From positions 64,001-128,000 of the IMG/VR virus record IMGVR_UViG_3300046710_000261: a stretch of 64,000 nt of DNA, one strand, 5' to 3'. Numbering within the stretch: the first letter of the stretch is position 1; every line of letters begins with the position of its first letter. Shown piece by piece: positions 76 through 50,946 of the stretch. The DNA is from a virus (taxonomy: Duplodnaviria; Caudoviricetes). Both the position numbers and the translations under genes were made by a program. The notes beneath the pieces were generated by a model. The model did not search any database. It was not told the DNA's origin and saw nothing but the letters and a program-made list of their open reading frames with translations.

Positions 76-135
76 TACTTTCTCCATCCTACTATTATAC
101 CATAAAACTTGTCAATTGTAACCATCAAATTATTG

Positions 136-34255: not shown

Positions 34256-34259
34256 GACG

Positions 34260-34342: not shown

Positions 34343-34618
34343 ATGTCAGAGAGAGACGAAAGAGAAGTATGGGCAAGAGAAGAAAGTCCCAGAAACCTTG
34401 AGGGATTGGGAACCTTTGCGTTAGTCAATGGAGCACAGATTCCTTTGACCGCAGGTGCCAGCTTCAAGGATACTTGTCTCCAGCTTTCCCGTGATGCGGG
34501 TTTCGGAAAGTTCCGTGTTTATCTAAACGGTTCAGAGATTACCCCATCCCAGGCACCCGAAACATTGAATGAGGGTGACAAAATGGAGATAAGAGCTTTT
34601 GACGTTGCTGGTAGATAA
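34343..34618 (+). CDS. Ubiquitin-like (beta-grasp, MoaD/ThiS-like) protein
   Basis: FRVYLNG...L.EGD.MEIR..DVAGR; adjacent to E1 and JAB genes. Confidence 0.75.
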   Translation: MSERDEREVWAREESPRNLEGLGTFALVNGAQIPLTAGASFKDTCLQLSRDAGFGKFRVYLNGSEITPSQAPETLNEGDKMEIRAFDVAGR

Positions 34619-34661
34619 AAGCTGTCAAATTTTCGAAAATTTGTAAACGCCAGCGTTGCTT

Positions 34662-34697
34662 GAGGAAGAAAGAGAAATTTTTCTTCCTCTTTTTTTA
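34662..34697 (+). terminator. Intrinsic terminator after the Ubl gene
   Basis: GAGGAAGAAA...TTTCTTCCTC followed by T-run. Confidence 0.75.
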
Positions 34698-34774
34698 TGT
34701 TTACATATTGATGTTTTTATGTTATAATATAAGTAGAATTGTATTGTCTATTTTTCAATATAGGAGAGAAAAAC

Positions 34775-35728
34775 ATGGCAGAAAAAAATCTTGATGATCT
34801 GAAATCGGAAATGACCAATTGCCTCAATGTTGTAGATATTGAGAAGATCAAATTGGATAAAGTGACAATGAGAGTTGGAAACAAGATCGTTCAGCTTGCC
34901 GTTGTCGGTGATGCTTCTTCCACATCTGTTGATCAGGAAATCAGAAAAGAATATAGCGAAAAACTAACCAAGAAACTTGCTCAAATTGGAGATATAATCA
35001 ATAACAAGATGAGTGAAGTTACGGCCATGGTCAGTCAGATCAAAAGTGAATATGATCGAAAAGAAAAAATCATAAATGACAGAATGAGAAATATGTCTCC
35101 CATGCCTGATGTAAATTTAGATATGGCAAGAAAGGGAATGTATGTTTTCAAGGGAGATAGTGGAGAAGTTTGCTATCTTATCAGGGGAAAATATCGTCCT
35201 CTTATGATCGACCAGAAGCCCCTTAAACCTGTCCAGGCCAAAAAACTTGAAGCAGATATTTTCATTATGTTCAATGTAAAAGATGGAAAAAACATATCAA
35301 TGGTGTCTACCAGAGATATAAACACTCTTGACTATTTTGATCATTATCACCAAGCAAAACCCGATTGTTGGGGGAAATGGATGTGGCCGAAAGATTTTAA
35401 AACTCCTTATGATCTGTTTTCTATTGCTAGAACAGCAGAAGGTGTTTTGGAAAATATCAATACTGGTTCTATAGCAAATAGAAATCCAAGGATATATCCA
35501 AAGATTGATGTTCTGAGAAAATACATTATTGACACTGATGAATTGAAATCTGAATTGGATGGCATGAAAAAGGGAAAGAAGAAATCCTGGATGGAAATGG
35601 ATGAATTGGAATTGGAAAGACTTGCTGAAGGAAGAATGCCGGAACCAGAAGTGGCCCAGCCCCTACCAGGAGAAGAATTAAGACCTCAGAGACGAGAAGG
35701 CACGGAAACTTGGGATACAGGAAGGTAA
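34775..35728 (+). CDS. Coiled-coil + putative E2-like (H...C) domain protein, paralogue 1
   Basis: FDHYHQAKPDCWG; own promoter 34700-34728; between Ubl and E1. Confidence 0.5.
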   Translation: MAEKNLDDLKSEMTNCLNVVDIEKIKLDKVTMRVGNKIVQLAVVGDASSTSVDQEIRKEYSEKLTKKLAQIGDIINNKMSEVTAMVSQIKSEYDRKEKIINDRMRNMSPMPDVNLDMARKGMYVFKGDSGEVCYLIRGKYRPLMIDQKPLKPVQAKKLEADIFIMFNVKDGKNISMVSTRDINTLDYFDHYHQAKPDCWGKWMWPKDFKTPYDLFSIARTAEGVLENINTGSIANRNPRIYPKIDVLRKYIIDTDELKSELDGMKKGKKKSWMEMDELELERLAEGRMPEPEVAQPLPGEELRPQRREGTETWDTGR

Positions 35729-35734
35729 ACCAAT

Positions 35735-36481
35735 ATGGCATTCATATGGCAATCAAGCGATTTGAAGGTAGACTTTGAAGAATATAAAAAAAGGTGTGTT
35801 CAAACTATGAAAGCAACAGAACCCAAACCCGTTGACCCGAAATATTTCAAGAGATGGATGGAAGAAATGACTGTCATGGTTGATCAAATACGGAAAGAAT
35901 ATGAGAGAAAAGAAAAATCATTATATAACAAAATGAAAAATACTGCTCCCATGCCTGATGTAGATTTTGATTATGCCAGAAGGGGAATGACAGTATTCAA
36001 TGGGAAAAATGGAAGAGTATGTTATTTGATAAAGGGAGAATATCGCCCCAAAATGGTTGATAATGCGTTTATTTCTTCTATTCAGGCGAAAAAAATGAGG
36101 CATGATATTTATTTTTTGGTTGAAATGGTAAAAAGCAAGATATACAGCATTTCAACCAGAAGAATAAAAGACCTTGCTTTTTTTGACCACTATCATCAAG
36201 CACATCCTGATTGTTGGGGTAGTTATCGGTGGCCAGAAGAAATTAATTCCCCTGAAGAATTATTTCATATAATAATAAATGCAGAGACTGTCTTGGAAAA
36301 TATCAATACACATTCTATTGCTCGCCGTGACCCAAAAGATTTACCAGAGATTGATGTTTTGAAAAAGAAATATTTGAGAAAAACACTAATAAACAAAAGG
36401 ATTGTGAAAAACAAATCAGCATGGTATAGCAGAAGCAGTTCAAGCGAATATGATGAATATGGTGATGGAGATGACTATTAA
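35735..36481 (+). CDS. Coiled-coil + putative E2-like (H...C) domain protein, paralogue 2
   Basis: FDHYHQAHPDCWG; shares PMPDV, LENINT.SIA.R.P, IDVL with paralogue 1. Confidence 0.5.
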   Translation: MAFIWQSSDLKVDFEEYKKRCVQTMKATEPKPVDPKYFKRWMEEMTVMVDQIRKEYERKEKSLYNKMKNTAPMPDVDFDYARRGMTVFNGKNGRVCYLIKGEYRPKMVDNAFISSIQAKKMRHDIYFLVEMVKSKIYSISTRRIKDLAFFDHYHQAHPDCWGSYRWPEEINSPEELFHIIINAETVLENINTHSIARRDPKDLPEIDVLKKKYLRKTLINKRIVKNKSAWYSRSSSSEYDEYGDGDDY

Positions 36482-36499
36482 AAGAAAGGAGAATGAAAA

Positions 36500-37087
36500 A
36501 TGACAATGTTGTATGATAGGCAAAAGGCTTTACAGTTGAGAACCCCATCTATTACCGTTGTAGGATGCGGTGGTATTGGATTTTGGGTTGGAAAATTTTG
36601 CGCCATGGCCGGGATAGAGACAATCCATTTATTCGACCCTGATACAATTGAAGATCATAATAGAAACCGATTGGATTTGACCGAAAAAGCAATCGGTGTA
36701 AATAAAGCACAAGTTCTCAAAGACCTTATCGTTGAATTGAGGCCCGAAGTGTCTTGCTATGCAATGCCTTTCAAATATCAGGAACATCTGGCCAAAAAAA
36801 CCGATTGGGTTATTGATTGCACCGATTTGTCAAAGTCCCAAGAAGAAAATTTGAAGATAGCCAAAAAATTCGGAAGCAAATATGTAAAAGCGGGTTATGA
36901 TGGAGAACATATCTCTATCAATAACAATTTGGCAGAATGGGGTGTTGCCGAAGATGGATATACAGTAATTCCGTCTTGGGTTGTTCCTGCTGTCATTGTC
37001 GCCGCGCTGACCGTAGCAAAAATTATGAAGTATGACAAAGAAGAAATTTCAACAACAATCCAAAGATTGTTTTCGTTAAAACATTAG
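36500..37087 (+). CDS. ThiF/MoeB/E1-like adenylyltransferase
   Basis: YDRQ, VVGCGGIG, FDPDTIE.HN.NRL, IGVNKA, VIDCTD. Confidence 0.9.
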   Translation: MTMLYDRQKALQLRTPSITVVGCGGIGFWVGKFCAMAGIETIHLFDPDTIEDHNRNRLDLTEKAIGVNKAQVLKDLIVELRPEVSCYAMPFKYQEHLAKKTDWVIDCTDLSKSQEENLKIAKKFGSKYVKAGYDGEHISINNNLAEWGVAEDGYTVIPSWVVPAVIVAALTVAKIMKYDKEEISTTIQRLFSLKH

Positions 37088-37099
37088 AAGGGGGATGCA

Positions 37100-39031
37100 A
37101 TGGGTGATCAGATGCCGATAAAGAAAGAGGTATTCGCGGGTATAAAAGAACTGGGAGAGAAAGAACCTAATACTTGGGTTTATTTGATCGGTGATGGTAA
37201 GACGGTCAGCTCTTTCAAAAAACTAACAGAATTTTCTGCTGTTCCAGCAGGGAATAAAATCATGGGAAAAATGCTGGCCGGCAGGGCAAACACCACAAAG
37301 GAAATAGAGTTGAAAAATTCTGAAAAGAAAGATGAAATCAGTCCTTCAGCCCCAAAAGAAGAAGTTAGAACATATACTGCCCATAGAGCAGGATTTCAGA
37401 CATTTAAGGGGGGAAAATTGGCAAGCGAAGCAGATTCGTGGGAAGTCAAGCTGGATTGTGTAACTTCTTGTAGCAAAGCACCATCGGAAAAGGAAGTCAA
37501 ACTTCAGCCTATTGTCAAAATGAAAATTGATTCCCTGATGAGTAAATATAAAAATCAGGAATGGCTTGCTTATTATGTTGGGCCAAAAGACCAATATATT
37601 GTCAACGATTTGGTAATTCCAGAGCAAAAGGCATCTTCTGCCCATGTAGGAGAGGTTGAATATTCCGTTCCAGAAGGTCAATGCGTTGTTGGAGTAATTC
37701 ATTCCCATCACAGCATGTTTAAGGATTTTTCAGGAACAGATGATGCCTGGATTAATCAAAACCACAATATCAGTACAGTTGTTACTCATACGGGAAGCAA
37801 GACCCGTTGCAGAGTAAAAACTCCTTGTGGTTCATTGATAATTGTTCCAGGTAAACTGAAGATGCTTTACAATGTTGAATTTGACGAAACTGAATTTATC
37901 AAACTCGCAGAAGAGAAAATCAATCCACCAACTACAGTATATAGTCAACCAGCACATGGGGTTTACGGACCTGAAATGTATGGCGACTATGACGCTAACT
38001 TTTTTCGGAACGGGGGGAGTGAAGAAGGACAAAAGTCTTCCACAACCTCCCCCACATCTGACGAAAAAACAACTGAAGAAGTGGAAAAAGAGACAAAGAA
38101 GAGTGATGAGACAACAGAAAAATTGGAAATGAACTGTCTCCATTACATGGATAATAAAGGATGCTCAAATAACAAGATTACAGGGCCATATTGCACCTAT
38201 TTCAATGGCTGTCCTCAATTCGAAAATAAGAATGGTGAGGTAGTAGATGAACAATCGAAGAAATGCTCTGATTATTACACAGCAGCACAATCATCTACAA
38301 AACCTCACGGGTGCCACAATAGAAATGTCACGGGTGTTGAATGTATAGGAAGAGGAAAGTGTGGAGTTTTCAGTTATAAATTCACACCACCTTCGCCCAC
38401 TCCTACTCTCGTCTCTGGCAATTCTGCAAAATTGTGTTATTATTTCTCAAAAGGCGATTGCCGCCACAATAAAGTAATGTCGAAGAAATGTTTGGGATGG
38501 TCTGCATGCGGAACGAACTTTTCCCCCAACAGAAAAATAGCGCAAGGAAATGGTAGTGGAAGTGATGATGAATCCATTACCTGCAAACATTATTTTGTTA
38601 CAAATGAAAGTCCAGCAGGAAGATGCCGTAACCAAAAGGTATCGGGTTTATTCTGCATAGGAAAAGATGATTGTAAATCCTATGAAAAACTTGGACCAAT
38701 TGTTCATATTCCAGTTGCGAATAAAGATGAATGGAATACAAACACACCAACATCTTCTATATCCGCAAAGAGAAACAAATATGAAGTAACATACAAAGGT
38801 ATAGGAAAAGATGCCAAGGAAAACACATTTATCATTGATGGGGAAACAGAAGAGATAGCAAAAGGTCAATTCTCTAAAATCTTTATTCCCAAAGATTATG
38901 AATTTGTGAGCATAAAAATAATGGAAGATGCCCCCGCATCTATCAAGCCCACTGTTCCTGTAGTAGAATCGAAAGTAACAGAAAGTGGAATACAACCGCA
39001 ACCAATACAGGAGTTCCCAGTAGTAGAATAA
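37100..39031 (+). CDS. JAB/MPN+ (JAMM) metalloprotease with four Cys4 repeats
   Basis: E(WLAY)...HSH-x7-S-x2-D (HSHHSMFKDFSGTD). Confidence 0.85.
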   Translation: MGDQMPIKKEVFAGIKELGEKEPNTWVYLIGDGKTVSSFKKLTEFSAVPAGNKIMGKMLAGRANTTKEIELKNSEKKDEISPSAPKEEVRTYTAHRAGFQTFKGGKLASEADSWEVKLDCVTSCSKAPSEKEVKLQPIVKMKIDSLMSKYKNQEWLAYYVGPKDQYIVNDLVIPEQKASSAHVGEVEYSVPEGQCVVGVIHSHHSMFKDFSGTDDAWINQNHNISTVVTHTGSKTRCRVKTPCGSLIIVPGKLKMLYNVEFDETEFIKLAEEKINPPTTVYSQPAHGVYGPEMYGDYDANFFRNGGSEEGQKSSTTSPTSDEKTTEEVEKETKKSDETTEKLEMNCLHYMDNKGCSNNKITGPYCTYFNGCPQFENKNGEVVDEQSKKCSDYYTAAQSSTKPHGCHNRNVTGVECIGRGKCGVFSYKFTPPSPTPTLVSGNSAKLCYYFSKGDCRHNKVMSKKCLGWSACGTNFSPNRKIAQGNGSGSDDESITCKHYFVTNESPAGRCRNQKVSGLFCIGKDDCKSYEKLGPIVHIPVANKDEWNTNTPTSSISAKRNKYEVTYKGIGKDAKENTFIIDGETEEIAKGQFSKIFIPKDYEFVSIKIMEDAPASIKPTVPVVESKVTESGIQPQPIQEFPVVE

Positions 39032-39065
39032 GAAGTCCATCTTATCTAAATCATAACTCCAATAA

Positions 39066-39102
39066 GACCATCTTAGAGATTTTTCTTTAAGATGGTTTTT
39101 TT
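39066..39102 (+). terminator. Intrinsic terminator ending the Ubl operon
   Basis: GACCATCTTA...TAAGATGGTT followed by T-run. Confidence 0.75.
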
Positions 39103-39116
39103 ATGCTCACAGAATT

Positions 39117-39124
39117 TATAAATA
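39117..39124 (+). promoter_or_regulatory. T4-type late promoter (TATAAATA)
   Basis: Exact consensus directly after the terminator, heading the 39.3-49.5 kb array. Confidence 0.65.
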
Positions 39125-39290: not shown

Positions 39291-39719
39291 ATGATAAAAG
39301 ATTATATTTTAGATAAAGATGATAAATCAGTTCGTGGATCATTTATTAATGGTATGATAACTATTTCAATTCTGGCTTGTACGGTATATGGATTATTATT
39401 TAGTGATCTTGTAACTGTTCGACTTGAGAAGTTAGCGACTTTTATTATTGGATTTTTTACATCAAGTTACGGTCTGTGGAGTTTAAAGAAACATATGGAT
39501 AGTAGATTAAACTCAGCAGAAAATATTGCTAATATAGAACAAGGAAATGTGCTTCCTAAAACACCTTCTCCTGTTCCAGGCCAGCCCCCACAACCTGTTG
39601 TTTATCAACAACCTCCTGATGCTTCTTGTGTTACTCAACCAGTAGGTTATGATCCAGGCCCAGGGGTTGTAAGCGAAGATGGTGTAAAGCCTCCTGGTGT
39701 TCTAAAGATTGATGGTTAA
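39291..39719 (+). CDS. Two-TM membrane protein with Pro-rich tail (holin-like)
   Basis: Two hydrophobic helices; late context. Confidence 0.5.
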   Translation: MIKDYILDKDDKSVRGSFINGMITISILACTVYGLLFSDLVTVRLEKLATFIIGFFTSSYGLWSLKKHMDSRLNSAENIANIEQGNVLPKTPSPVPGQPPQPVVYQQPPDASCVTQPVGYDPGPGVVSEDGVKPPGVLKIDG

Positions 39720-39722: not shown

Positions 39723-40547
39723 ATGAAATGGTTGGATTTTATTGCTCCTGAAATGAATATTGCTTATGAAGTAATGAATAATCTTTATTACTTCAACAAA
39801 AGACTTTTTGATGCTGCGAGAAGATGTAATTTTTCTATTTCCTCATTAGGAGAAATTGGTGATACAAAAAACCATATTTACCTATTGAAACGACCAAAGG
39901 TAAATGGTGGAAACGGTCTTATTACATCGGGATTTCATGGAAATGAAATTGCTGGCCCTTGGGGCGTCGTGAGGTTTTTAGAAAATACCGATTTGAATAT
40001 ATTTGACAATATAAACGTTTCAATTATTCCCCTAGTAAATCCCATGGGGTTTAGAATGAATATGAGGCATGGGGGATATGGTGACGATTCTAACAGGGGA
40101 TATATAAAAACTGATGATATACAACATATTCCTCAATTGTCTAAAGAAGGAGAGATTTTGAGGTCACACGGGGCTATCTATAAAGACTTGGCCAAGGATG
40201 GGTTGATATGTCTCCACGAGAATCCTGGATACGATTTTGACTATTTCATATACGGATATGAAAAATCGGCAGAACCAGGAAATTTCACCAATCTATTCAG
40301 AGACATAGAAACCAAATATTTCCTTCCTTTTGGATTTGGTGAATCTCCAAGTAAATGCGATGCCGTGATTGATTCGATTGTTTTCAAAAGATTTGATGGT
40401 GGATTTCAGGATTGGCTTTTTAGAGAGGGCATGACAGACAGGGCCGTTGTTACGGAAACTCCTGGAAATCAACCATTGGAAAAACGATTGAAGTGTAATG
40501 TTGAGATGATTGAAGCATTCATAAATTGGATACGAGATAATACATGA
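39723..40547 (+). CDS. M14/succinylglutamate-desuccinylase-like zinc carboxypeptidase
   Basis: GFHGNE, NP.G, D.NR, LHE, TETP. Confidence 0.8.
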   Translation: MKWLDFIAPEMNIAYEVMNNLYYFNKRLFDAARRCNFSISSLGEIGDTKNHIYLLKRPKVNGGNGLITSGFHGNEIAGPWGVVRFLENTDLNIFDNINVSIIPLVNPMGFRMNMRHGGYGDDSNRGYIKTDDIQHIPQLSKEGEILRSHGAIYKDLAKDGLICLHENPGYDFDYFIYGYEKSAEPGNFTNLFRDIETKYFLPFGFGESPSKCDAVIDSIVFKRFDGGFQDWLFREGMTDRAVVTETPGNQPLEKRLKCNVEMIEAFINWIRDNT

Positions 40548-41173
40548 GACTAAATGAATTTTTAAGTAAAGAAGATTTTTCAAAGAAATCAGAAGAAATA
40601 TGCGATATATTAAGAAAAGAATGCTTTGATTTTATCGTGGAATCCAAAGGTCAATCTCTTTATAGGGCAACATATCAGCCTGTGAATCATTATAGATTAT
40701 TTCAATCTCATGTTAAAAGCGGTCGTGAGCCAAGAAATACACCACCAGAGGTTCATGATTATTTGAATGACTTGTTTATAGAACATCTTGGATGGAAGGA
40801 ACGAGATGGTGTTTCTACAATGGGGCATGAATCTGGTTATTATGGTTATGCGTATTTGTTTTTTCCTGTAGGCGAATATCAGTATGCTTGGGCAGATGAT
40901 ATTTATGATATATATATTAAAATAAATGATATTGCTGATGAGGTTACGGGCCAGAGATCTATTCCTCATCTCTTCTTTTTGGATAAGTATAAGGAAGAAG
41001 CAAAAATAAGATTACAACAATTAGTGAAATCATATAACGATGATAGACTTGCAGAAGCAATTCATCAAGATGCGGAAGTAGTTTTTAATTGTAAAGAATA
41101 TTATCTTGTCAGTCAAGTGTATTTGGAAGATATAAGAAAAGCTATGAAGGTTAGGAAGAAATATATAAAGTAG
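40544..41173 (+). CDS. ART-fold-like paralogue A1
   Basis: LYRA...R.P...GW..RDGVST...YG..YLFFP.G.Y.Y.W...AEVVFNC. Confidence 0.55.
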   Translation: MRLNEFLSKEDFSKKSEEICDILRKECFDFIVESKGQSLYRATYQPVNHYRLFQSHVKSGREPRNTPPEVHDYLNDLFIEHLGWKERDGVSTMGHESGYYGYAYLFFPVGEYQYAWADDIYDIYIKINDIADEVTGQRSIPHLFFLDKYKEEAKIRLQQLVKSYNDDRLAEAIHQDAEVVFNCKEYYLVSQVYLEDIRKAMKVRKKYIK

Positions 41174-41184
41174 AGGGATTATAG

Positions 41185-41763
41185 ATGAGATTGAATGAAT
41201 TTATATCAGAAAAAATGATGGATTTTCCTCATGTAAGGCAGAGCACAAATTACTCTTGTGGTGCAGCCGCTGTTCAATCAGTTATAGCATATTATGAAAA
41301 CGATATGCCGAGAGAAACCGAAGTGATGAAATGGCTTCATACCGTTCCCTGTGATGTGATGAATATCGGCTCGGCAATTCAATCCGTTATATCTTTTCTA
41401 ACAGAGCGTGGATATACTCTTGAACATAAGGAATATTTTACTATAGAAGAGGTTGTTCAATATATTCAACGGGACATTCCTGTAATTGTCCTGATGCAAG
41501 CATGGGCAGAGCAAAGACCAAAAGACTATTCTATGACATATACCGATGGTCACTATATTGTTGCTATCGGTTATAACTTATTTCAGAAGAGATTATTTTT
41601 CGCCGACCCGTCTTTGGAAACAAGGGGATGGCTGGATTTTGATGAATTGAATGCGAGATGGCATGCAGTTGACGAAACAGGGAAAAAAGTAGAACATTAT
41701 GGTTTTGCAGTTTCAGGAAAGAAACCAAATTTCAGTAATAAGGTAATTAAAAAAATAGAATGA
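41185..41763 (+). CDS. C39-like cysteine peptidase, paralogue of 136..774
   Basis: QSTNYSCGA, GHYIVAIGY, ADPS. Confidence 0.8.
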   Translation: MRLNEFISEKMMDFPHVRQSTNYSCGAAAVQSVIAYYENDMPRETEVMKWLHTVPCDVMNIGSAIQSVISFLTERGYTLEHKEYFTIEEVVQYIQRDIPVIVLMQAWAEQRPKDYSMTYTDGHYIVAIGYNLFQKRLFFADPSLETRGWLDFDELNARWHAVDETGKKVEHYGFAVSGKKPNFSNKVIKKIE

Positions 41764-42563
41764 GACTAAACAATTATTTGGAAGAAGAAAGACGAAGCAG
41801 AAGTGTTAGTGTTACGACGAAATGGGTGAAAGATTTCATTTCTCATAATGATAATTCTGTTGAATCTTCTTCATTATATAGAGGCATCAAAGGGGCAACA
41901 GAACCATATTATTTTACAGACCCATCTAAAGGGGAGAGAGGTTCACGAGACACCTTTATATTCTATGTGTTAATGATGGATAATTTTCCAGAATGGAAGG
42001 AATATCCAAAACGAAGCAAATCAATTATTATGGGAACGAGTGATGATGTTGCCTATTCTTATGGTACGGCTATATATAGAGTTTTTCCAGTAAATAATGC
42101 TAAAATAGCAATCTCCCCGAAATTTGATGTGTGGTCTGCTTTTGTCTTTTCTCTTGGCTCGGGAATTGAAACTTTTAGCATTGAATTGAATACTATTTTT
42201 GGTCTTTTTCGCGAAGAGATACACAAGGAACAAAAAATAACATATGAAGAATTATTGAAAAAATTTAGTATCGCGGATAGGCCCAGAAATAAAGAAAGAA
42301 TTAAAACATATTATCAAGAAATGAGTTTAGGCTTAATGCGCAGTAAAATATTTCATGATAAATCTGAATATATCAATACACCTAAACTTAAATTAGTGGA
42401 TGTTTTGAGAGAAAAAATTAGTCCTAAAAATAACAATTTTGAATTGATAACTCTGAATAAACATATGATTCTTCCTCCCAGACGGGAAGCGTGGACGGAT
42501 AGTGAATGTGTTCTGGTGAGCGTAAATTCTTTAAAAAATATTTTAGATCCATCATTGCTTTGA
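41760..42563 (+). CDS. ART-fold-like paralogue B1
   Basis: LYRG, W..YPKRSKSIIMGTS, YRVFP, REAWTDS.CVL. Confidence 0.55.
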   Translation: MRLNNYLEEERRSRSVSVTTKWVKDFISHNDNSVESSSLYRGIKGATEPYYFTDPSKGERGSRDTFIFYVLMMDNFPEWKEYPKRSKSIIMGTSDDVAYSYGTAIYRVFPVNNAKIAISPKFDVWSAFVFSLGSGIETFSIELNTIFGLFREEIHKEQKITYEELLKKFSIADRPRNKERIKTYYQEMSLGLMRSKIFHDKSEYINTPKLKLVDVLREKISPKNNNFELITLNKHMILPPRREAWTDSECVLVSVNSLKNILDPSLL

Positions 42564-42573
42564 GGGTTTTTAG

Positions 42574-43365
42574 ATGAGATTAAATAATTATATATTGGAA
42601 GATAAAGCAGATAAGTATACAATGATTTCTGAAAAGAAAGCAATGGAAATAGTCAAGGCCAAATGTTCCGATGCCCATAATAGTGATACGAGATTATTTA
42701 GGGGATTGAATAGAACCGATCCCGCCTTTATCTATAAGCCATCATTATCACCGAGACATTCAAAAATTAGAATAGAATTTTTGATGTTACTTGCCGACAA
42801 TCTTCCATCATGGAAAGAATATCCAAAAAGGTCATTATCTATTTCTACTATAACAGGGAAGATGGGGCCAGGTGAATTTGGTAGTGTTTTATATAGAGTG
42901 TATCCTTTTAATGGGGCGAAATTGGCGGTCTGCCCAGCAATAGATTTTAATCAGGGTTCATTTAAGAAATCTTTGGGTGATATAGGTGAAGCAAGACTAT
43001 TATATTATCTTCAAGATATATTTGACAAAATTTTTAATTTGAAGGGGAACATAGAAAAATGGACAGACTTTGTTAAAGTTTTAAGTCTATGTGATAAGAA
43101 TAAAGATAAGATTGAGAAGTGGTATAGAACAACACAGCCAGAATTGGTACAAAAATATTTTATAGACCATGTAAAATATTTTGGTAGGAATATCAGTTTT
43201 TTGGATGCTCTTGATGAAGCACTTGACCCTAAAAAGAATGGATTTCGTATTGCTAATATCAAAACACAAATTCCAGAGGGGAAGGAAGTGTGGACAGATT
43301 CGGATTGTGTTCTTATTTTTAAAGGAAAAGCAGAACGCCGAGGATTTTCGGAGTTGATAAAATGA
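42574..43365 (+). CDS. ART-fold-like paralogue B2
   Basis: LFRG, WKEYPKRSLSIST, YRVYP, KEVWTDSDCVL. Confidence 0.55.
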   Translation: MRLNNYILEDKADKYTMISEKKAMEIVKAKCSDAHNSDTRLFRGLNRTDPAFIYKPSLSPRHSKIRIEFLMLLADNLPSWKEYPKRSLSISTITGKMGPGEFGSVLYRVYPFNGAKLAVCPAIDFNQGSFKKSLGDIGEARLLYYLQDIFDKIFNLKGNIEKWTDFVKVLSLCDKNKDKIEKWYRTTQPELVQKYFIDHVKYFGRNISFLDALDEALDPKKNGFRIANIKTQIPEGKEVWTDSDCVLIFKGKAERRGFSELIK

Positions 43366-44174
43366 GATTAGAAAATTATCTTGAAGAAAAAATAAAATAT
43401 GATGATAAAACAAGGTCTTCAGTTTTGGATTTGGCAAAGGGCCGAGAATTTATTTATTCATCTTGCTCTAAAGCACTTGATGCTCCTTATGCTATATATA
43501 GAGATTCGGCCACAACAGGAGATGTTCTTCTTGTGGAACCATCAAAATATGAAAGATATTCTGCCAATACTTTTAATTATTATACGTTGATGATAGATAA
43601 TTTTCCAGAATGGCAAAAGTATCCCAAAAGAAGCAAATCAATCATTTGTTCTACAAACCCAATATATGCCGAAGCCTTTGGTGAAAACTTATATAAAGTG
43701 TTTCCTATTGATGGAGCAAGAATTGGAGTATGCCCTAATTCTGATATATGGCCAACAAATATTGGTGGTAAAGCCCAATTGAGCGACCTTGTTGAAGCTA
43801 TTGATGACTTATTGATTATTTTTTATAATAACATTTTACACGAGGCCAAACCCGAATTGATAGACAGGGATTATAATAAGTTTAAAAAAGCTATGGAACT
43901 TATTGATAAGAACTTTGAGAAATTTGCGCATGAGTACAAAAACACAGGGCAGGAATATTATTCTAAGAAATATTATTGTAAGATTTGGAATGAATTGAAA
44001 TATTTTTCCAAGAAGGTCTCTTCTATTGATTTTTTGCGAAAGATTTTCAATCCAGAGACATGTAAATTTGAATTGAAAACATCTGGTGATTCTCTTCCTC
44101 TTGATAGAGAAGTCTGGATTGAAGATAAATCTGTTTTAGTCAACAGGGATGTCTGGAAAAAAATATTTTATTAA
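43362..44174 (+). CDS. ART-fold-like paralogue B3
   Basis: IYRD, WQKYPKRSKSIICST, YKVFP, REVWIE. Confidence 0.55.
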   Translation: MRLENYLEEKIKYDDKTRSSVLDLAKGREFIYSSCSKALDAPYAIYRDSATTGDVLLVEPSKYERYSANTFNYYTLMIDNFPEWQKYPKRSKSIICSTNPIYAEAFGENLYKVFPIDGARIGVCPNSDIWPTNIGGKAQLSDLVEAIDDLLIIFYNNILHEAKPELIDRDYNKFKKAMELIDKNFEKFAHEYKNTGQEYYSKKYYCKIWNELKYFSKKVSSIDFLRKIFNPETCKFELKTSGDSLPLDREVWIEDKSVLVNRDVWKKIFY

Positions 44175-44188
44175 AATGAGGGCCGATT

Positions 44189-44914
44189 ATGAGACTTGGT
44201 GGATTTATAGACGAAATAAATGAAACTGAATTAATTCAAGAAAGCATAAATGACTTGGGTATATTCAAAGCTGTTTTTATGGCAGGCTTCCCTGGCGCAG
44301 GGAAAACATATGTCTTGACAAAAGTTAAATCGGGACAAATTGAACCGCGAATGGTTAGTGTTGATAGATATGTTGAATTTAAAGATCCCAATGGTAAAGA
44401 TTATATGGCGTTTTATGATAGATCAAAAACTGTAACAGCCACACAACTTCTTCTTTATATCAATTCTCTTCTTCCTCTTGCCGTTGATGTTACATCTTCA
44501 AAGTCAACCACGGTTATCAGAAGATATAATATTCTGGAAAATTTGGGTTATGATATGGGTATGATATTTGTAAATACTTCTGCCGAAACATCATGGGAGA
44601 GGATACAGCAAAGATCAAGAAAAGTTGATCGAGATAGTTTTTTAAGATACTATGATCAAATCCAAAAAACGAAGGAATTTCTAAAAGGTAAATTTCCATT
44701 TTATATAGAAGCGAAGAACGATACGGGGGAATTGACTGATGAGGTTGTTTTAGGATCATATAAGAAGGTTTCATATTTTTATGAATCAAGTATAAAAAAT
44801 CCAATTGGCCAGGGTTATTATAATTTAATGAAAAGTTATGGCTGGAAATATTTTACTCCCAATGTAATGCCCATGGCAGAATTGAAAAGTAAGATTGCTG
44901 ATTGGTATAAATGA
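44189..44914 (+). CDS. P-loop kinase (zeta-toxin/AAA_33-like)
   Basis: KAVFMAGFPGAGKT, D.T, GYD..MIFVNTS.E....R...R.R. Confidence 0.75.
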   Translation: MRLGGFIDEINETELIQESINDLGIFKAVFMAGFPGAGKTYVLTKVKSGQIEPRMVSVDRYVEFKDPNGKDYMAFYDRSKTVTATQLLLYINSLLPLAVDVTSSKSTTVIRRYNILENLGYDMGMIFVNTSAETSWERIQQRSRKVDRDSFLRYYDQIQKTKEFLKGKFPFYIEAKNDTGELTDEVVLGSYKKVSYFYESSIKNPIGQGYYNLMKSYGWKYFTPNVMPMAELKSKIADWYK

Positions 44915-44926
44915 TAGGAGATAAAA

Positions 44927-45478
44927 ATGACTTGTAAAAAATGTGAAATTGATAAATTATGGACAGACGAATATTTTTATAGAAGGTCAGACAATGGAAG
45001 ATTGAGAAAAATATGTAAAGAATGTGTTATTGATAATCAAAGACAATATAATTTGAAACATAGAGATGAACAATTAAATTATCTACATTTATATTACGAG
45101 AATAATAAAGGAGAAATGATTAAACAAATTATACAATGTGAAAAAAATCGTATTCAAAGTGATATACAATTCAAAGTAATTAAAAGATTAAGAAGTCGTA
45201 TGTATTCAGCATTAAAAGGAAATTGGAAATTTGGTCATACAATTGAATTACTTGGATGTTCTATTGATGAATTCAAAAAATATTTTAAAGAGAAATTTCA
45301 GCTTGGAATGAATTGGGATAATTATGGTAAATGGCATATTGATCATGTAAGACCATGTGCTTTATTTGATATGAGCAAAGAAGAAGAACAGAGAAAATGT
45401 TTTCATTATACCAATCTTCAACCATTGTGGGCAAAAGATAATATTTGTAAGGGAGGAAAAATAAAAAATGAAATTTAA
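44927..45478 (+). CDS. HNH endonuclease (probable homing endonuclease)
   Basis: N-terminal CKKC...CKEC; LLGCS, MNWDNYG.WHIDHVRP, CFHYTNLQPLW. Confidence 0.8.
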   Translation: MTCKKCEIDKLWTDEYFYRRSDNGRLRKICKECVIDNQRQYNLKHRDEQLNYLHLYYENNKGEMIKQIIQCEKNRIQSDIQFKVIKRLRSRMYSALKGNWKFGHTIELLGCSIDEFKKYFKEKFQLGMNWDNYGKWHIDHVRPCALFDMSKEEEQRKCFHYTNLQPLWAKDNICKGGKIKNEI

Positions 45479-45830
45479 AGATTTTTATGAAAGACCCATT
45501 ATGAAGAAAACGGAAGATATAGAAGAACGATTTGTTCTTTCTGAATCCACCCATATAGAAAATACTGATATGGAGCACTTCAAAAAGGTATTGAAAAATC
45601 CTACACATGGAAAATATGTATTAAGGAGTTACAGGAATAATTATACTGATGAAGAAAGAGAAGTAGACATTCTTGCTCTGGAAGGAAGAACAAGAATCGT
45701 GTTGACTTATAATGCTGATTTCTTGGAATTTACACAGGAAATGGTTGATTTATGTGACGATTTAAATTATACCACCAAGTATGATAAAGAAAGACAAATA
45801 AACACACAAACTCTTACGATATATAAGTAA
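45468..45830 (+). CDS. Hypothetical protein (MKFKDFYE N-terminus)
   Basis: ORF in array. Confidence 0.6.
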   Translation: MKFKDFYERPIMKKTEDIEERFVLSESTHIENTDMEHFKKVLKNPTHGKYVLRSYRNNYTDEEREVDILALEGRTRIVLTYNADFLEFTQEMVDLCDDLNYTTKYDKERQINTQTLTIYK

Positions 45831-45831
45831 A

Positions 45832-46449
45832 ATGAAAGCCAAAAGATATATAGCAGAAGCAATAGCAGGTGATAGAGAAATACTTGATTTTGTCAAGAAA
45901 CAATGCAGTAAATATCTTGCGGAATCAAAAGGTAATACTCTTTGGAGAGCGATTCCGCGTAGAATCAATAAGTATGAAGTTGTTCAATCGCATATTAGCA
46001 ATAGGGCACCAATGAATGTTCCTTTGGAATTTCATCATTATCTCAATTCTATTTTTGAAGAAAAGTTTGGCTGGCCTGTTAGAAACGGAACATTTTCATA
46101 TAGTGACAAAGAGAAAACATATTTTTATGGTCAGCCTTATATGTTTTTTCCGATTGGGGATTATAAGTTTGTATGGTCTCCTAATGTATCTGATCTTTTC
46201 GGTGCGTTATATTCTTTTATACCAAAAGAATATTTCGAACATTCAAGTTCTATGGGTGTATGGTGGAAAAAAAAGCCAGAAGAAGCAAAGAAAGTGGTGA
46301 GAACATTGTTAATAACATATACTGATAAAAATTTGGTTGAAGCAATAAAACACAGAGTTCATTTGGTAAGAGACGAAGGTTGCGAAATATCATTCAAATG
46401 TGGTAATTATGTTTTAGTGGACGAAGAATATCATTATTTATTTGCGTAA
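45832..46449 (+). CDS. ART-fold-like paralogue A2
   Basis: LWRA, FGWPVRNGTFS, YMFFPIG, WSP, CEISFKC. Confidence 0.55.
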   Translation: MKAKRYIAEAIAGDREILDFVKKQCSKYLAESKGNTLWRAIPRRINKYEVVQSHISNRAPMNVPLEFHHYLNSIFEEKFGWPVRNGTFSYSDKEKTYFYGQPYMFFPIGDYKFVWSPNVSDLFGALYSFIPKEYFEHSSSMGVWWKKKPEEAKKVVRTLLITYTDKNLVEAIKHRVHLVRDEGCEISFKCGNYVLVDEEYHYLFA

Positions 46450-46453
46450 AAAT

Positions 46454-47476
46454 ATGAGATTATATAAGAATATAAATGAAGCTAAAAATTATAATAACTG
46501 GATGTTTCCTTCTCACGAAACAATGGTGGCGGATTATGAAGAATATAAGAAAAAGGAACAGACCAAGTGGAAATCTAGGGTTGATCGCATTGGTTCACGA
46601 TTTCCGATATTCAAAGATTTTGAACATTTTCAACAAGCGTTGAAAAATGCCAAAGTAATAATATTGACAAAAAATATTGATGATAGAATAATGAATAGAA
46701 GCCATTCATTTAGCATAGAAAATTTAAAAGGTTTGGTTTCTTCATATATTCGCCCGCGCGATGTTGATAGAATAGTTAGCGGTTTCGAGGACAATGATAA
46801 AATTCCTTATCCTATTGTATTGAAAGGCAGCAAAGGAATGTGGATAATGGCAGGTAATACAAGACTTGATACATCATTCATTATGGAAATAACACCGAAA
46901 GTATTGATGGTTGATGTTTCTGATAAGGTAATGGAAGAACAAATACCTATAACTGCTGATAGAATTATTTATATACTTAAAAAGGATTGTAAGCCCTTTA
47001 TAAAAGAACTTGGTGGTCGTGGATTGTATTATAGATTTAGGCGGTTTCCTATGGTAGATAATATTCTGAAAATGGATGTAAGAAAAGATCGACAACCAAA
47101 AGATATGTCACTTGATATGCAAAGAATATTTGACCATATGTTTTTTAAAAAATTTGGATGGAAACCACGATCAGAGGGTGTATTTGCTTTGCCTCAATCT
47201 GAAATACTGGATGATGCGACATATAATTATGGCAAACAATTTATATTTTTTCCTATTGGAATATATAAGTATATTTGGTCTTCAAGAATAATTGATTTAT
47301 ATGGTTCTATTCCTGCTTTACGTGGCAAGGATAAAAACGAAGAGGCCAAAAGATTGGTTAGCAGTTATATAGACAATAGTCTTCCTATGGATACACCACA
47401 TGAAGTTACATTTTTGTGTGAATATTATTACTTGGTAAACATGAAATATGATAAAGCTATCAGGAATGCTATATGA
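46454..47476 (+). CDS. ParB/Srx-like domain fused to ART-fold-like paralogue A3
   Basis: YPIVL...IMAGNTRL; then FGWKPRSEGVF, FFPIG, HEVTFLC. Confidence 0.55.
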   Translation: MRLYKNINEAKNYNNWMFPSHETMVADYEEYKKKEQTKWKSRVDRIGSRFPIFKDFEHFQQALKNAKVIILTKNIDDRIMNRSHSFSIENLKGLVSSYIRPRDVDRIVSGFEDNDKIPYPIVLKGSKGMWIMAGNTRLDTSFIMEITPKVLMVDVSDKVMEEQIPITADRIIYILKKDCKPFIKELGGRGLYYRFRRFPMVDNILKMDVRKDRQPKDMSLDMQRIFDHMFFKKFGWKPRSEGVFALPQSEILDDATYNYGKQFIFFPIGIYKYIWSSRIIDLYGSIPALRGKDKNEEAKRLVSSYIDNSLPMDTPHEVTFLCEYYYLVNMKYDKAIRNAI

Positions 47477-48378
47477 GATTGAATACTATTTTGAAAGAAG
47501 AAGAAGATAGAAATACCAGGTGGGAAGAACTGAAAGTCTTCATTCAGAAGCATTGTGTCAAATTCATGATAGAATGCGCCGAAAAGAATATTATCTTGTG
47601 GAGAGGTTCTAATAAATTTCCTATTGATCCCTATAACATATGGGATGTATATCCATCTCGTATTTCTAGTGGAAGAGCACCGATGAGTACAAGTAAATTT
47701 CTTCATGATCTGGCAAATAAAACATTCATTGAGAAATTTGGTTGGCCTGTTCGAGACGGGATTTTTACCACCAAAGATTTTAGTGTAGCAGATAGTTATG
47801 GGAGAGCATTTATTTTTATTCCTGTGGATAGTTATCAGTATGCGTGGTCTCCTAAAATTTCAGATTTTTATATGTATGTAACATCACAAACTACTAAATT
47901 AACATATTTTGATATTGGCGGTGGTGATCCTGATGCTATGATGTATCGTTTATGGATAGAAAAATATGGGCCAAAAACAATTCATGATAATGGTGGTGAA
48001 TGGTTTGATGTTGTTAAAAATGAAATTATCAAAATGGATAGTTATGAAAAGAAAAGTAAAGTCTTTTTATCTAACCATAAAGTAGGAGATGAAATAGTTC
48101 TTGGTGTCTATCATAAACGAGCAGAAAGAATAAATGTTTTTTGGAAGCCAACAGTTGATTTTAACCAATTTAAGAAAGAAGAATGGCTTCAACTGGAAGG
48201 AGAAATGCGAAGTATTGTTAATACATATACAGGTAAAGTTTTAGTTGCGGCGAACGAAAAACATGAAATTCTTTTCAATTGTGATAAATATATTATGATA
48301 TGGGTGCCGAGAGTTGAGTCAACTGAAAAGGAAAAGATACTTTCTGAATATTTTAAAATATTGAGGGAATACAAATGA
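47473..48378 (+). CDS. ART-fold-like paralogue A4 with insertion
   Basis: LWRG, FGWPVRDGIFTT, WSPKISD, HEILFNC. Confidence 0.55.
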   Translation: MRLNTILKEEEDRNTRWEELKVFIQKHCVKFMIECAEKNIILWRGSNKFPIDPYNIWDVYPSRISSGRAPMSTSKFLHDLANKTFIEKFGWPVRDGIFTTKDFSVADSYGRAFIFIPVDSYQYAWSPKISDFYMYVTSQTTKLTYFDIGGGDPDAMMYRLWIEKYGPKTIHDNGGEWFDVVKNEIIKMDSYEKKSKVFLSNHKVGDEIVLGVYHKRAERINVFWKPTVDFNQFKKEEWLQLEGEMRSIVNTYTGKVLVAANEKHEILFNCDKYIMIWVPRVESTEKEKILSEYFKILREYK

Positions 48379-48698
48379 TAGATATACTTGAGAAAATAAA
48401 ATTTATTTTGGAACAGAACGCAGTAACTTCATATGGCAGACAGGCTCAACAGCAGAAAACCGCCACATCAAGTGCATATAAATCATCTGTCACGGCTCAG
48501 AGGTCTGCTGCCGCTTCAAGAGTAAGAACACAAAAGGCTCGACAAGCAACTCCAAAGAAAAGCACTCAAGGCCCATCTAGTAATAAAGAATGGTGGAATA
48601 AAATCAAAAGTCAGAGACAACGACATTCAGACGTTATAAATAAAAGAAAATCGGCCAATACAAGTGGCTATCAATCGAGATTAGCAAGGACAAAATAA
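48375..48698 (+). CDS. Highly basic low-complexity protein (putative internal DNA-binding protein)
   Basis: MIDILEKIKFILE followed by an R/K/S/Q-rich tail. Confidence 0.6.
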   Translation: MIDILEKIKFILEQNAVTSYGRQAQQQKTATSSAYKSSVTAQRSAAASRVRTQKARQATPKKSTQGPSSNKEWWNKIKSQRQRHSDVINKRKSANTSGYQSRLARTK

Positions 48699-48907
48699 TG
48701 GAAAAAGTAAACATCAATGTGGGAACGTTGCCTAATGTAGTTTGTGATTGCGGTAATGAATTTTTCGAAAACCTATTTATCGTGAAAAAACTTTCTGCTT
48801 TACAAAGCCCAACAGGCAAAGAAGAAGCTATGCCAATTCCTCTTATGATTTGTAGTAAATGTGGAAAGAGTTTGGAAGAAATTCTAACAAAACCTACATT
48901 ACAATGA
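48698..48907 (+). CDS. Small zinc-ribbon protein
   Basis: CDCGN..F...KKLSALQSPTG.E...CSKCG. Confidence 0.7.
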   Translation: MEKVNINVGTLPNVVCDCGNEFFENLFIVKKLSALQSPTGKEEAMPIPLMICSKCGKSLEEILTKPTLQ

Positions 48908-49506
48908 GACTTGAACAATACATAACAGAAAAAAGATCACCAGTTGATATTCCGGGCTATGATATGGAAAAGAATGCATCTATTATTAAGACGGATTGCC
49001 AGCCCTTTTTCAAGGAAAATACTTCTGGTAGATTTCTCTATCGCGGTACAAATAAAAGTATAGGTGAAATAGAGAAAATAATTCCAAGAAAAGAAAGAAA
49101 ACCTTCTGATATGCCACGATTTTTGCACAATGAATTGAATATAGTATTCGCAAAAAAGTTTGGATGGCCAGTAAGAAATGGCGTATTTGCTACTTCAGAT
49201 GATCGCGAGGCTGAAGAATATGGTGATCTATACTTATTTTTCCCAATAGGTAATTACAAATATGTTTGGTCTCCGAAAATACCTGATCTTTGGAAGTTGT
49301 TTGATAAAAATACCGGTATTTTCAAAGATTTGATGCATATGACGAGTATCAAACCAAGCGAGGAAAAATATTTGGAAAAATCTGTTGATACATATATAGA
49401 TAAAGATTTATCAAAAGCAATGAAAACAAATAAATCCCATGAGATTTCTTTTTTGTGTGAAGCATATTATATGATAGACCCTCTATACGAAGAATATCTA
49501 TTATAA
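48904..49506 (+). CDS. ART-fold-like paralogue A5
   Basis: MRLEQYITE start; LYRG, FGWPVRNGVFATS, WSPKIPDL, HEISFLC. Confidence 0.55.
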   Translation: MRLEQYITEKRSPVDIPGYDMEKNASIIKTDCQPFFKENTSGRFLYRGTNKSIGEIEKIIPRKERKPSDMPRFLHNELNIVFAKKFGWPVRNGVFATSDDREAEEYGDLYLFFPIGNYKYVWSPKIPDLWKLFDKNTGIFKDLMHMTSIKPSEEKYLEKSVDTYIDKDLSKAMKTNKSHEISFLCEAYYMIDPLYEEYLL

Positions 49507-50946
49507 ATCTGGAACAATCCCATCAATGGCATCGCCTTCCTCCAATACATGCTCGATGATATTGAAACCCTCAGAACCATAATATCGAGACCTCTTCACA
49601 CCAAATTCCAATAAATATTTGATTTCATCCACTATATCGAATACAACAGAACCTTTTGATTTATCGGTATGAAGTCTCAGTGACCTGCCGATGGATTGTA
49701 ATACTCTTATTTTGCTTTTGAATGGGGATGTCAGAACGATATATTTGAGGGATGGGATGTTTATGCCCATCTGGAATGTTCCATAGGTTGCTATGAGAAT
49801 TATGTTCTTTCTTTTTTCGCATTCCTTTCTCCATTTTTCTCTCTCTTCAACATCTACTCCACCATGGATGAATACGATTTCTCGCAACCATAAATTATTA
49901 CATCCTTTGAAATAATCAAATAATAACTGTCCTTCTTTTTCTATTTTTCCAACAAGCAGAAGAATGTTATGGTCAACGGCTGATACTATATAATGGAGCA
50001 ACATCATTCTATATTTGTTTCTGAAAATCTTGTCCTTTATATCGTTATATTCTCCATCATATTCTTGCTGATATTTCAGGTTGATTGAGACAACATTACA
50101 TTTGCTTATATAACCTTTTTCTGCCAATTCATTTGCTGTATATTCTCTCCATACAGGGCCGATGAACGCCTTGACATTCCATAAATCCATTTTTGATGAG
50201 GGGAGGGTTCCAGTAAGACCATATCGGTATTCTGCGCTTGTGCATTTTTCCATGATCTTTTTTATTTCATGTGCTTTTGCCTGATGGACCTCATCACAGA
50301 TAACACAATCATATAATTTCAATGCGGTATGGTTGTCTTTCAATGTTTGCCAAGTTGATATAACAATCGGTTTGTCAAACTCTTTTGCCTTTTCCCAAAC
50401 TTGTCCTATATCATCTTTTGGTATGCCATATTCAATCATATCATTTTTGAATTGTTCGACAAGGGAAATTGTAGGAACAATAATCAACGAATGTTTTACT
50501 GGAAGATTTTTTATGATATAAGCTATGACCAAACTCTTCCCGCTTGCCGTTGCTGCCCTGAAAATTCCTTTGGAATACTTCAAAGCGATTTCTATCATCT
50601 CTTGCTGGTAATCTCTTGGGGGCAATTTCAAATCATATTTTATTTCGCCCACTGATGGATTTTTGAACATATCCATTACATCTTTTTCTACTTTCATTTC
50701 CAGCATCGGATATTCGTCTTTTTTGAAACGGATGAGATCTATGAATAAGCCATAAGGAAGGGTATTTCGGTATGCATTATACATGCTTATCTTCCCAGAC
50801 CAATAGCCCGATTTGAATTTCGGGTTGAATTGATAGTTTTCTACATAGTCTGAAAAGTGATTTTTTACTGCATCAAGAAAACCTTTCTCTTCGAAGTCTG
50901 CATCCAATGTTATAAATAACTTTCCGTACTTCTCTACTCTTATCAT
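49501..50946 (-). CDS. uvsW: UvsW-like SF2 DNA helicase
   Basis: PRDYQ, ATASGKS, DEVH, GLTGT, LQSIGRSLR. Confidence 0.92.
   Translation of the reverse strand: MIRVEKYGKLFITLDADFEEKGFLDAVKNHFSDYVENYQFNPKFKSGYWSGKISMYNAYRNTLPYGLFIDLIRFKKDEYPMLEMKVEKDVMDMFKNPSVGEIKYDLKLPPRDYQQEMIEIALKYSKGIFRAATASGKSLVIAYIIKNLPVKHSLIIVPTISLVEQFKNDMIEYGIPKDDIGQVWEKAKEFDKPIVISTWQTLKDNHTALKLYDCVICDEVHQAKAHEIKKIMEKCTSAEYRYGLTGTLPSSKMDLWNVKAFIGPVWREYTANELAEKGYISKCNVVSINLKYQQEYDGEYNDIKDKIFRNKYRMMLLHYIVSAVDHNILLLVGKIEKEGQLLFDYFKGCNNLWLREIVFIHGGVDVEEREKWRKECEKRKNIILIATYGTFQMGINIPSLKYIVLTSPFKSKIRVLQSIGRSLRLHTDKSKGSVVFDIVDEIKYLLEFGVKRSRYYGSEGFNIIEHVLEEGDAIDGIVPDL

Follow-up and report, generated by a model that had tools for sequence, protein, structure and literature searches.

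A tagged gene array in a T4-like phage

The window analysed here is a 64,000-nucleotide stretch, bases 64001-128000 of a 155,948-bp IMG/VR virus record (IMGVR_UViG_3300046710_000261) with a CheckV completeness of ~70%. On its plus strand, 16 co-oriented and tightly packed genes run from a TATAAATA motif at 39117 to position 49506, and 13 of the 16 begin with a version of the same short peptide leader; we refer to these genes as tagged. The source phage is T4-like, since the gene for the helicase UvsW lies beside the array and relatives carry T4-type portal, protease, scaffold and capsid genes. An earlier note on this DNA had listed the 13 N-termini and had proposed that they mark an injected payload loaded into the capsid as in T4; all 13 are present in the sequence where it had placed them. 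A megablast search with the array against 50,697 phage records found no near-identical phage DNA. Positions are those of the window unless the genome is named.

The array is bounded on both sides. On the left, a terminator-like hairpin with a T-run (39064..39099, +; 16-pair stem) closes an upstream operon with ubiquitin-like (Ubl) and JAB-like genes, and directly after it stands TATAAATA (39117..39124, +), a motif of the T4 late-promoter type that heads the tagged operon. The promoter that the earlier note had seen before the array is thus borne out as a motif, with an untagged gene between it and the first tagged one. This gene, the first past the motif, encodes a small membrane protein with a Pro-rich tail (39291..39719, +; alternative ATG at 39240) that has no Pfam or PHROG match; a similar membrane protein precedes the arrays of the related loci L067, L009 and L011. 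On the right, the convergent UvsW gene (49501..50946, -; Pfam UvsW_N, ResIII and Helicase_C) forms a conserved border, which adjoins the array in 17 related loci.

Eight of the tagged genes, all on the plus strand like the other five, encode paralogues with a predicted ADP-ribosyltransferase (ART) fold, which fall into two groups. Group A1 comprises tagged gene 2 (40544..41173), whose leader MRLNEFLSKE is canonical plus one extra residue; gene 9 (45832..46449; MKAKRYIAE, canonical); gene 10 (46454..47476; variant MRLYKNINE), in which an extra N-terminal domain of ~165 aa precedes the A1 ART-fold domain, and which begins at the ATG of 46454 rather than the TTG of 46442; gene 11 (47473..48378; variant MRLNTILKE), with a large insertion; and gene 13 (48904..49506; MRLEQYITE). 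Group A2 comprises genes 4 (41760..42563; MRLNNYLEE), which matches the N-terminal domain of phrog_12810, 5 (42574..43365; MRLNNYILE) and 6 (43362..44174; MRLENYLEE). Genes 13 and 6 are the members that were modelled. The remaining five are gene 1 (39723..40547; variant MKWLDFIAPE), for a predicted zinc metallopeptidase of the M14-like/AstE-AspA type with an HGNE motif and a match to phrog_4722 (zinc carboxypeptidase); gene 3 (41185..41763; MRLNEFISE), for a C39-like cysteine peptidase of the papain fold; gene 7 (44189..44914; MRLGGFIDE), for a P-loop kinase of the Zeta_toxin/AAA_33 type by Pfam, which also matches phrog_12810 at positions 252-464; gene 8 (45468..45830; weak variant MKFKDFYE), for a 120-aa protein of unknown function conserved in the related loci L011 and L038; and gene 12 (48375..48698; long leader MIDILEKIKFILE), for a 107-aa basic, low-complexity protein resembling an internal protein, which accounts for the basic protein that had been noticed among the cargo.

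The leader is conserved as a peptide and shared by unrelated proteins

The leaders of the array follow the consensus M-R-L-x-x-[F/Y]-[I/L]-x-E, more loosely with R/K at position 2 and L/F at position 3; eight are canonical, four are variants and one (MIDILEKIKFILE) is of a longer type. In the whole 156-kb record, the strict pattern M[RK][LF]..[FY][ILM].E is found at 14 of 337 gene starts, a looser form at 23 of 337, and the pattern at none of 914 internal methionines; the recurrence of the leader is beyond chance. Its codons vary (AGA and CGC; TTA, CTA and TTG; TTT and TAT) and the DNA upstream of the genes is unrelated, and it is therefore the peptide itself that is conserved and selected. 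For the same two reasons, varying codons and unrelated flanks, we rejected the possibility that the shared start stems from a DNA repeat or a recombination cassette. Among the best 151 metagenomic representatives of the A1 family, 100 carry the strict leader and 125 the loose one, with the consensus M-[RK]-[LF]-x-x-[YF]-[LI]-[NT]-E. Both AlphaFold models of paralogues place the leader outside the domain and give it the lowest confidence of any segment (pLDDT 46-57 in the first model; a helix at 58-66 in the second).

The leader is portable across unrelated folds. Within this record it stands N-terminal to the Pfam domain of C39 peptidases (two genes), the kinase, a NUDIX hydrolase and a RimK ATP-grasp protein with a Zn_protease domain, and the M14-like, basic and ART-fold proteins of the array are tagged too; in relatives it is also found on NT5C, a CCA-adding enzyme, RNA ligase, cREC_REC and CN_hydrolase proteins. 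Across 64 related loci, the strict leader heads 111 of 1,329 open reading frames (ORFs), which include 43 ART-like proteins, 12 CCA-adding enzymes and 4 kinases, besides RNA ligase, a cREC_REC domain, CN_hydrolase, HAD/NT5C phosphatases, DUF5662 and many small proteins of unknown function.

The record holds ~25-28 tagged genes in total, if a second leader type and a degenerate leader on a CCA-adding enzyme are included. They form three clusters, at window positions -3419 to 7248 (minus strand), in the array described above and at genome positions 142419-145319 (minus strand), and each cluster is downstream of a TATAAATA copy. The third cluster, which is outside the window (L003:4420-7320, -), lies behind a minus-strand TATAAATA. 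Its products all start MRLxxY[IL/M]xE and comprise a NUDIX hydrolase, three small proteins and a fusion of a RimK-type ATP-grasp ligase with a Zn_protease domain. A solitary tagged gene for a 223-aa protein (genome 140283-140954, +; MRYENFLVE), likewise outside the window, has TATAAATA 28 nt upstream. The second, longer leader type (..I[IL][ED]KI[DK]x[FY]LxE) is found on small proteins at window positions 48375, 6066-6413 (-), 8130-8330 (-) and -134..87 (-), and leaders resembling MIDILEKIKFILE recur on small ORFs within the head module of the relative G003 (L065:147-2930), near the portal and protease genes.

A paralogue family with a predicted ADP-ribosyltransferase fold

The eight paralogues counted by the earlier note are confirmed as five A1 members (starting at 40544, 45832, 46454, 47473 and 48904) and three A2 members (41760, 42574 and 43362), which hhalign links into one superfamily (97.5% probability, E 5e-12). 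Neither group has a Pfam family, and no Pfam ART model matched at E <=0.1. In an exhaustive hidden Markov model search, A1 retrieved 6,318 cluster representatives (clusters at 50% identity) at E <=1e-3.

One member of each group was modelled with AlphaFold (pLDDT 88 and 89.5), and the models were compared with ~48,000 PDB chains in a full structural scan with VIA-align. The list for the first model consisted almost purely of ART-fold chains and that for the second was led by them; top rows included BC2332 (Z 6.5 and 6.1), Arr (5.3 and 6.0), the diphtheria, PE and cholix toxins, DarT, PARPs and Tpt1, as well as pertussis toxin and CteC, all with modest Z values below 8. A Foldseek search of the PDB with a paralogue model gave no match below E 0.1. 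Given these modest Z values and the lack of a Foldseek match, the ART fold is assigned to these models with moderate confidence. An invariant Arg in the motif [LI]YRG lies on a strand, a Ser/Thr ends the next core strand and an invariant Glu starts a late strand; by their strands these residues would correspond to the R-S-E triad of an ART, and they are putative catalytic residues.

Homology of the paralogues to T4 Alt was considered and rejected (hhalign probability 0.2-0.3%). The best match of the A1 profile was a giant metagenomic protein of 2,645 aa (P0014) with five ART-family stretches, which may be a polyvalent-type protein. That it is a polyprotein cut at internal leaders was rejected, as no leader motifs precede its domains.

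Other enzymes encoded with the leader

The enzymes that had been read from the sequence of the array hold up in profile searches, one of them under a modified name. The C39 peptidase (gene 41185) matches Peptidase_C39_2 (PF13529; E 1.5e-15, 58.5 bits against a cut-off of 24), and its translation has the catalytic Cys in NYSCG and the His in DGHY. The zeta-like kinase (gene 44189) matches both Zeta_toxin (PF06414; 36.2 bits, cut-off 22.3) and AAA_33 (PF13671; 32 bits, cut-off 27), contains the Walker A motif GFPGAGKT and has a weak polynucleotide-kinase PHROG match too. The supposed M14 carboxypeptidase (gene 39723) is a probable metallopeptidase by its matches to the PDB entries 2qvp, 3b2y and 3ieh (E 6e-41 to 5e-36) and its HGNE motif, of the HxxE zinc type; the Pfam model AstE_AspA_cat reaches only 23.1 bits, under its cut-off of 25, and on these sequence matches the product is better named a 3b2y-type M14-like metallopeptidase. 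The activities of all these proteins are those predicted from their families.

The paralogue at 43362-44174 and the kinase at 44189-44914 match positions 1-249 and 252-464 of phrog_12810, respectively. The kinase thus corresponds to the second domain of a PHROG built around gp53 of Agrobacterium phage Atu_ph07, in which paralogue and kinase are fused; gp53 itself, a fused protein of 778 aa, appears to belong to phrog_12810. The pair reflects a split or a fusion, in the course of which the leader was retained or acquired, and in this phage the two are separate genes, each with its own leader.

RNA-related enzymes recur among the tagged proteins. A nucleotidyltransferase of the CCA-adding/poly(A) polymerase type in the window (1288-2730, -) has the degenerate leader MDFRRFYLFE, and leader-bearing CCA-adding enzymes are found in 12 related loci (for example L009:8583-10004 and L067:6472-7899). 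Judged by their domains, the tagged CCA-adding enzyme, RNA ligase (L013:2729-3391), cREC_REC protein (L035:11509-11856), kinase and phosphatases look like an RNA-repair set.

A late-promoter-type motif and the head genes of relatives

The window contains 14 copies of TATAAATA, compared with 7.2 +/- 2.8 expected. Of 29 copies, ~13 have a co-oriented start within the next 120 nt, a count that depends on crude ORF calls and is unusable as a statistic. In the relative G003, TATAAATA is found ~25 nt before the portal gene and also heads a syntenic tagged array beside UvsW. By analogy with T4, we infer that TATAAATA acts as a late promoter. In another relative, G002, the major capsid gene is followed directly by a tagged gene for a 159-aa protein (L066:6686-7165, -; MKLLKYINE) with a TATAAATA of its own.

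The earlier note had advised seeking a gp21-like protease elsewhere in the genome. Peptidase_S77, a gp22-type scaffold, Portal_T4 and Gp23 were not found in the ~70%-complete record, where only a 59-aa portal-clip mini-ORF matched; as the record has no portal, prohead-protease or major-capsid gene, the head module presumably lies on the missing part, and as the record is incomplete, the absence of these genes says nothing about the phage. The relatives G001-G003, which have the tagged family, do encode the protease (Peptidase_S77, PF03420, E 2e-31) together with a T4_CASP scaffold (PF25623), Portal_T4 and Gp23. The S77 proteases start MITKAHLITE in G003 and MKKGFLITE in G002, and the capsid proteins of these two relatives read ..VLNE and ..ILDE at residues 13-18, so that the N-termini of protease and capsid protein would fit the same L/I-x-E specificity. 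The capsid protein of this clade is only ~33% identical to that of any cultured phage.

Virion proteins of Agrobacterium phage Atu_ph07

By tblastn, homologues of the paralogues are found only in Atu_ph07, SCTP-2, RsoM2USA and two uncultured jumbo phages. The RsoM2USA paper identified only ~10 gel bands, too few to bear on the homologues there. Atu_ph07 resembles the phage studied here in having a homologous array of ART-fold paralogues (tblastn E 8e-9 to 2e-16), a short leader ending in L-x-E and a gp21-like protease (gp204); it differs in being a 490-kb jumbo phage, in the kinase being fused to a paralogue in gp53 and in its local leader, M[RK]WxQL[TN]E. Each protein of its array, gp53-gp63, starts with this leader, M[RK]W[x]QL[TN]E, or a near variant. 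A degenerate DNA pattern for the strict form M[RK]WxQLxE hits the 490-kb genome at exactly 10 sites, each a gene start, and gives no hit with a reversed control; the proteins are gp54-62 and the remote gp408 (30.60 kDa), the sole site outside the array.

The earlier note had named absence of the proteins from virions as grounds for refuting its reading; for the homologues in Atu_ph07 the outcome is the opposite. In the published virion proteome of Atu_ph07, gp53-gp63 are all virion proteins, with 3-31 unique peptides and 12-47% coverage (Attai et al. 2018, Table S5, PMC6102473), and gp408 is in the same table with 6 peptides, as is its neighbour gp407 (PMC6102473). All 10 strict-leader proteins are therefore in the virion, compared with a background of 131 of 714, and the variants gp53 and gp63 are present as well; the homologues that speak to virion association, gp53-gp63 and gp408, are ART-like paralogues only. 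Because computed molecular weights match the table to 0.01 kDa, the gene numbering is verified. Attai et al. (2018) list gp53-gp63 and gp408 as hypothetical proteins, and a text search of the paper finds no 'paralog' (PMC6102473). The gene for gp407 (MF403008 303755-304783), an abundant virion protein with 17 peptides, may have been annotated with a start too far upstream, because the leader-like peptide MKLINLLE begins at Met12 of the annotated protein.

Untagged genes and variable content of the array

Three genes of the array are untagged: that of the small membrane protein, an HNH/endonuclease VII-like gene and one for a 69-aa zinc ribbon. The HNH/endonuclease VII-like gene (44927..45478, +; phrog_1035, E 7.6e-16) overlaps the next gene by 11 nt and is missing from the syntenic arrays of L011, L009 and L067; because of this absence, it is probably a homing endonuclease inserted into the array. 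The zinc-ribbon gene (48698..48907, +), conserved in L011, has an internal TATAAATA copy at 48635, 56 nt upstream.

The content between the membrane-protein gene and UvsW varies among close relatives: L011 has 8 genes in this interval, and the array of L009 also holds RimK, a CCA-adding enzyme and a nucleotidase. Similar variability is a feature of the internal-protein loci of T-even phages.

Discussion

Capsid targeting by a short N-terminal peptide in T4 is the textbook route by which a phage loads proteins into its head, and it is known for a handful of small proteins only. As read in the T4 record, the N-terminus is MKTYQEFIAE in IPII and IPIII and MKTFKEF in IPI. The first 10 residues of IPIII are enough for packaging, and mutagenesis of the T4 capsid-targeting sequence (CTS) has assigned residues 4 and 7 to targeting and residues 8 and 10 to processing, with Asp at position 10 stopping cleavage and leaving targeting intact; gp21 itself has LIE-9 (PMC9026906, a review of Black's work). 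The leader MRLNEFISE retains the aromatic residue (T4 F7), the I/L (I8) and the Glu (E10).

The two systems have much in common. Both have a leader of ~10 residues at the extreme N-terminus that ends in aromatic-[I/L]-x-Glu (MKTYQEFIAE and MRLNEFISE); both carry it on otherwise unrelated proteins, in a T4-type lineage with homologues of gp20, gp21, gp22 and gp23, here in the relatives; and in both the locus varies in content between relatives, with ART-fold enzymes and a small basic protein among the cargo. The two also differ: (i) a partial genome holds ~25-28 tagged genes, where T4 has three internal proteins and Alt; (ii) the cargo consists mostly of enzymes (peptidases, a kinase, NUDIX and RimK proteins and, in relatives, RNA-repair types), whereas that of T4 consists of small basic anti-restriction proteins; (iii) the leader is one residue shorter, with Arg-Leu replacing Lys-Thr-Tyr, and the system is known from sequence alone; (iv) the ART-fold paralogues have no sequence similarity to Alt.

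Other phages load their heads by related means. In phiKZ, 201phi2-1 and SPN3US, many head-internal proteins are cut after Glu by a gp21-related prohead protease, and paralogues of ejection or inner-body proteins have conserved N-termini in common; their propeptides, however, are mostly of >=100 residues, with an A/S/G-x-E motif, and there is no short portable tag of 9 residues (PMC5694885). ARTs and Nudix enzymes are often packaged in the heads of myoviruses (Iyer et al. 2022, PMC9503650). Among these, the MuF-fusion and polyvalent-protein effectors are alike in that enzymes acting on NAD+ or ADP-ribose are loaded into myovirus heads and act early on the host (PMC9503650), but they are delivered by way of a structural domain fused to them or as part of a giant multidomain protein, in contrast to the separate genes found here, each with its own short and putatively cleavable leader. 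The principle is thus already known from the T4 CTS, packaged Alt and head-packaged ART and Nudix enzymes (PMC3012670, PMC9026906, PMC9503650); what differs here is the scale, the enzymatic cargo, an undescribed ART-fold family and the breadth across uncultured phages.

Taken together, these comparisons make it probable that the leader serves, as in T4, to target cargo to the capsid and to mark the cleavage site, and that this cargo is ejected. The T4-like tag proposed in the earlier note therefore finds support in several indirect tests, namely the CTS residues, the portability of the leader, TATAAATA, the protease and scaffold genes of relatives and the presence of the Atu_ph07 homologues in virions. 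On this model, the array would be transcribed late from TATAAATA; the leader would dock the products on the gp22-type scaffolding core of the assembling prohead, as by analogy with T4; a prohead protease of the gp21 family (S77) would cut after the Glu of [I/L]-x-E, freeing the mature enzyme inside the head; and the cargo would leave with the DNA at the next infection, acting before any phage gene is expressed.

Several points weigh against this reading. Of the 13 leaders, five are variants, among them MKFKDFYE, which lacks the spacing. The late-promoter role of TATAAATA is assigned by analogy, and no match to T4 gp55 was found in the record, which at ~70% completeness is uninformative on this point. 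The prohead protease is inferred from relatives alone, the record having no portal, protease or capsid gene. The evidence from Atu_ph07 covers ART-like paralogues only, with a different local leader, and bears on association with the virion, not on targeting by the leader. Finally, a CCA-adding enzyme, RNA ligase, RimK and a nucleotidase are not classic virion cargo: either the tagged proteins of the RNA-repair types are packaged, which would be new, or the meaning of the leader would be wider.

This last point leads to the best of the alternatives, which we nevertheless consider unlikely: that the leader marks some other process, such as recognition by the adjacent Ubl-conjugation/JAB cassette, degradation, localisation or the assembly of an enzyme complex in the cytoplasm, for example for RNA repair. 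Many of the tagged enzymes of relatives (the CCA-adding enzyme, RNA ligase, cREC_REC and kinase) are indeed of RNA-repair types that are normally cytoplasmic, and a cassette of Ubl-, E1-, E2- and JAB-like genes (34259-39103; weak Prok-JAB match in a 643-aa protein) ends 700 nt upstream of the array. However, this cassette adjoins the array in just 3 of the 64 related loci, and arrays with the leader are widespread without it, Atu_ph07 and G003 included; a general link between leader and cassette was therefore rejected, given an adjacency of 3 in 64 against the synteny of array and UvsW in 17. The leader, moreover, matches the functional residues of the T4 CTS, tagged homologues are found in Atu_ph07 virions, and N-termini of the leader type also occur on small ORFs within the head modules of relatives.

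Less probable still is that the tagged proteins are targeted to the virion but stay there as structural or decoration proteins, in the head interior, the whiskers or the tail, and are not ejected. The Atu_ph07 proteomics would be compatible with this, as it demonstrates virion association only, in a preparation that was purified with polyethylene glycol and analysed without sub-virion localisation. Yet the cargo consists mostly of soluble enzymes with intact catalytic motifs, unlikely as building blocks, and the T4 precedent is that Alt and the internal proteins are ejected (PMC9026906). Finally, that the shared N-terminus is no signal at all but merely inherited by paralogues, or a feature of mRNA or translation initiation in an AT-rich genome, might be suggested by the eight paralogues among the 13 genes, the leader-bearing character of their whole family and the A/T-rich leader codons, but it is very improbable, as the leader is also found on unrelated folds outside their Pfam domains, is absent from internal methionines, varies in synonymous codons, is preceded by DNA that is not conserved and keeps its residue classes across representatives of thousands of clusters.

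If the leader is a capsid-targeting signal, a broader picture can be put forward, as a tentative proposal that we hold with less assurance than the function of the leader itself. A large uncultured T4-like lineage and jumbo phages of the Atu_ph07 type may pre-load their capsids with at least two dozen separate enzymes by means of one leader, including an expanded ART-fold family. In relatives the enzymes would amount to an almost full kit for RNA repair (CCA-adding enzyme, RNA ligase, kinase and a cyclic-phosphate-processing domain). Loading would be done in such a way that the takeover of the host and the repair of tRNA damage inflicted by its defences would start from injected protein, before phage gene expression. 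The published Atu_ph07 proteome already fits the capsid-targeting part of this picture. If the capsid-targeting reading is right, a device known from T4 would run at about tenfold its scale, both in cultured jumbo phages and in an uncultured T4-like lineage that is abundant, and a simple sequence pattern would predict injected proteins from metagenomic phage genomes. The ART-fold family, very large at more than 6,000 clusters, uncharacterised and without a Pfam model, would become a source of candidate injected, host-modifying enzymes, and the delivery of RNA-repair enzymes as protein would be a testable idea. The leader would also provide a second natural packaging tag for phage engineering.

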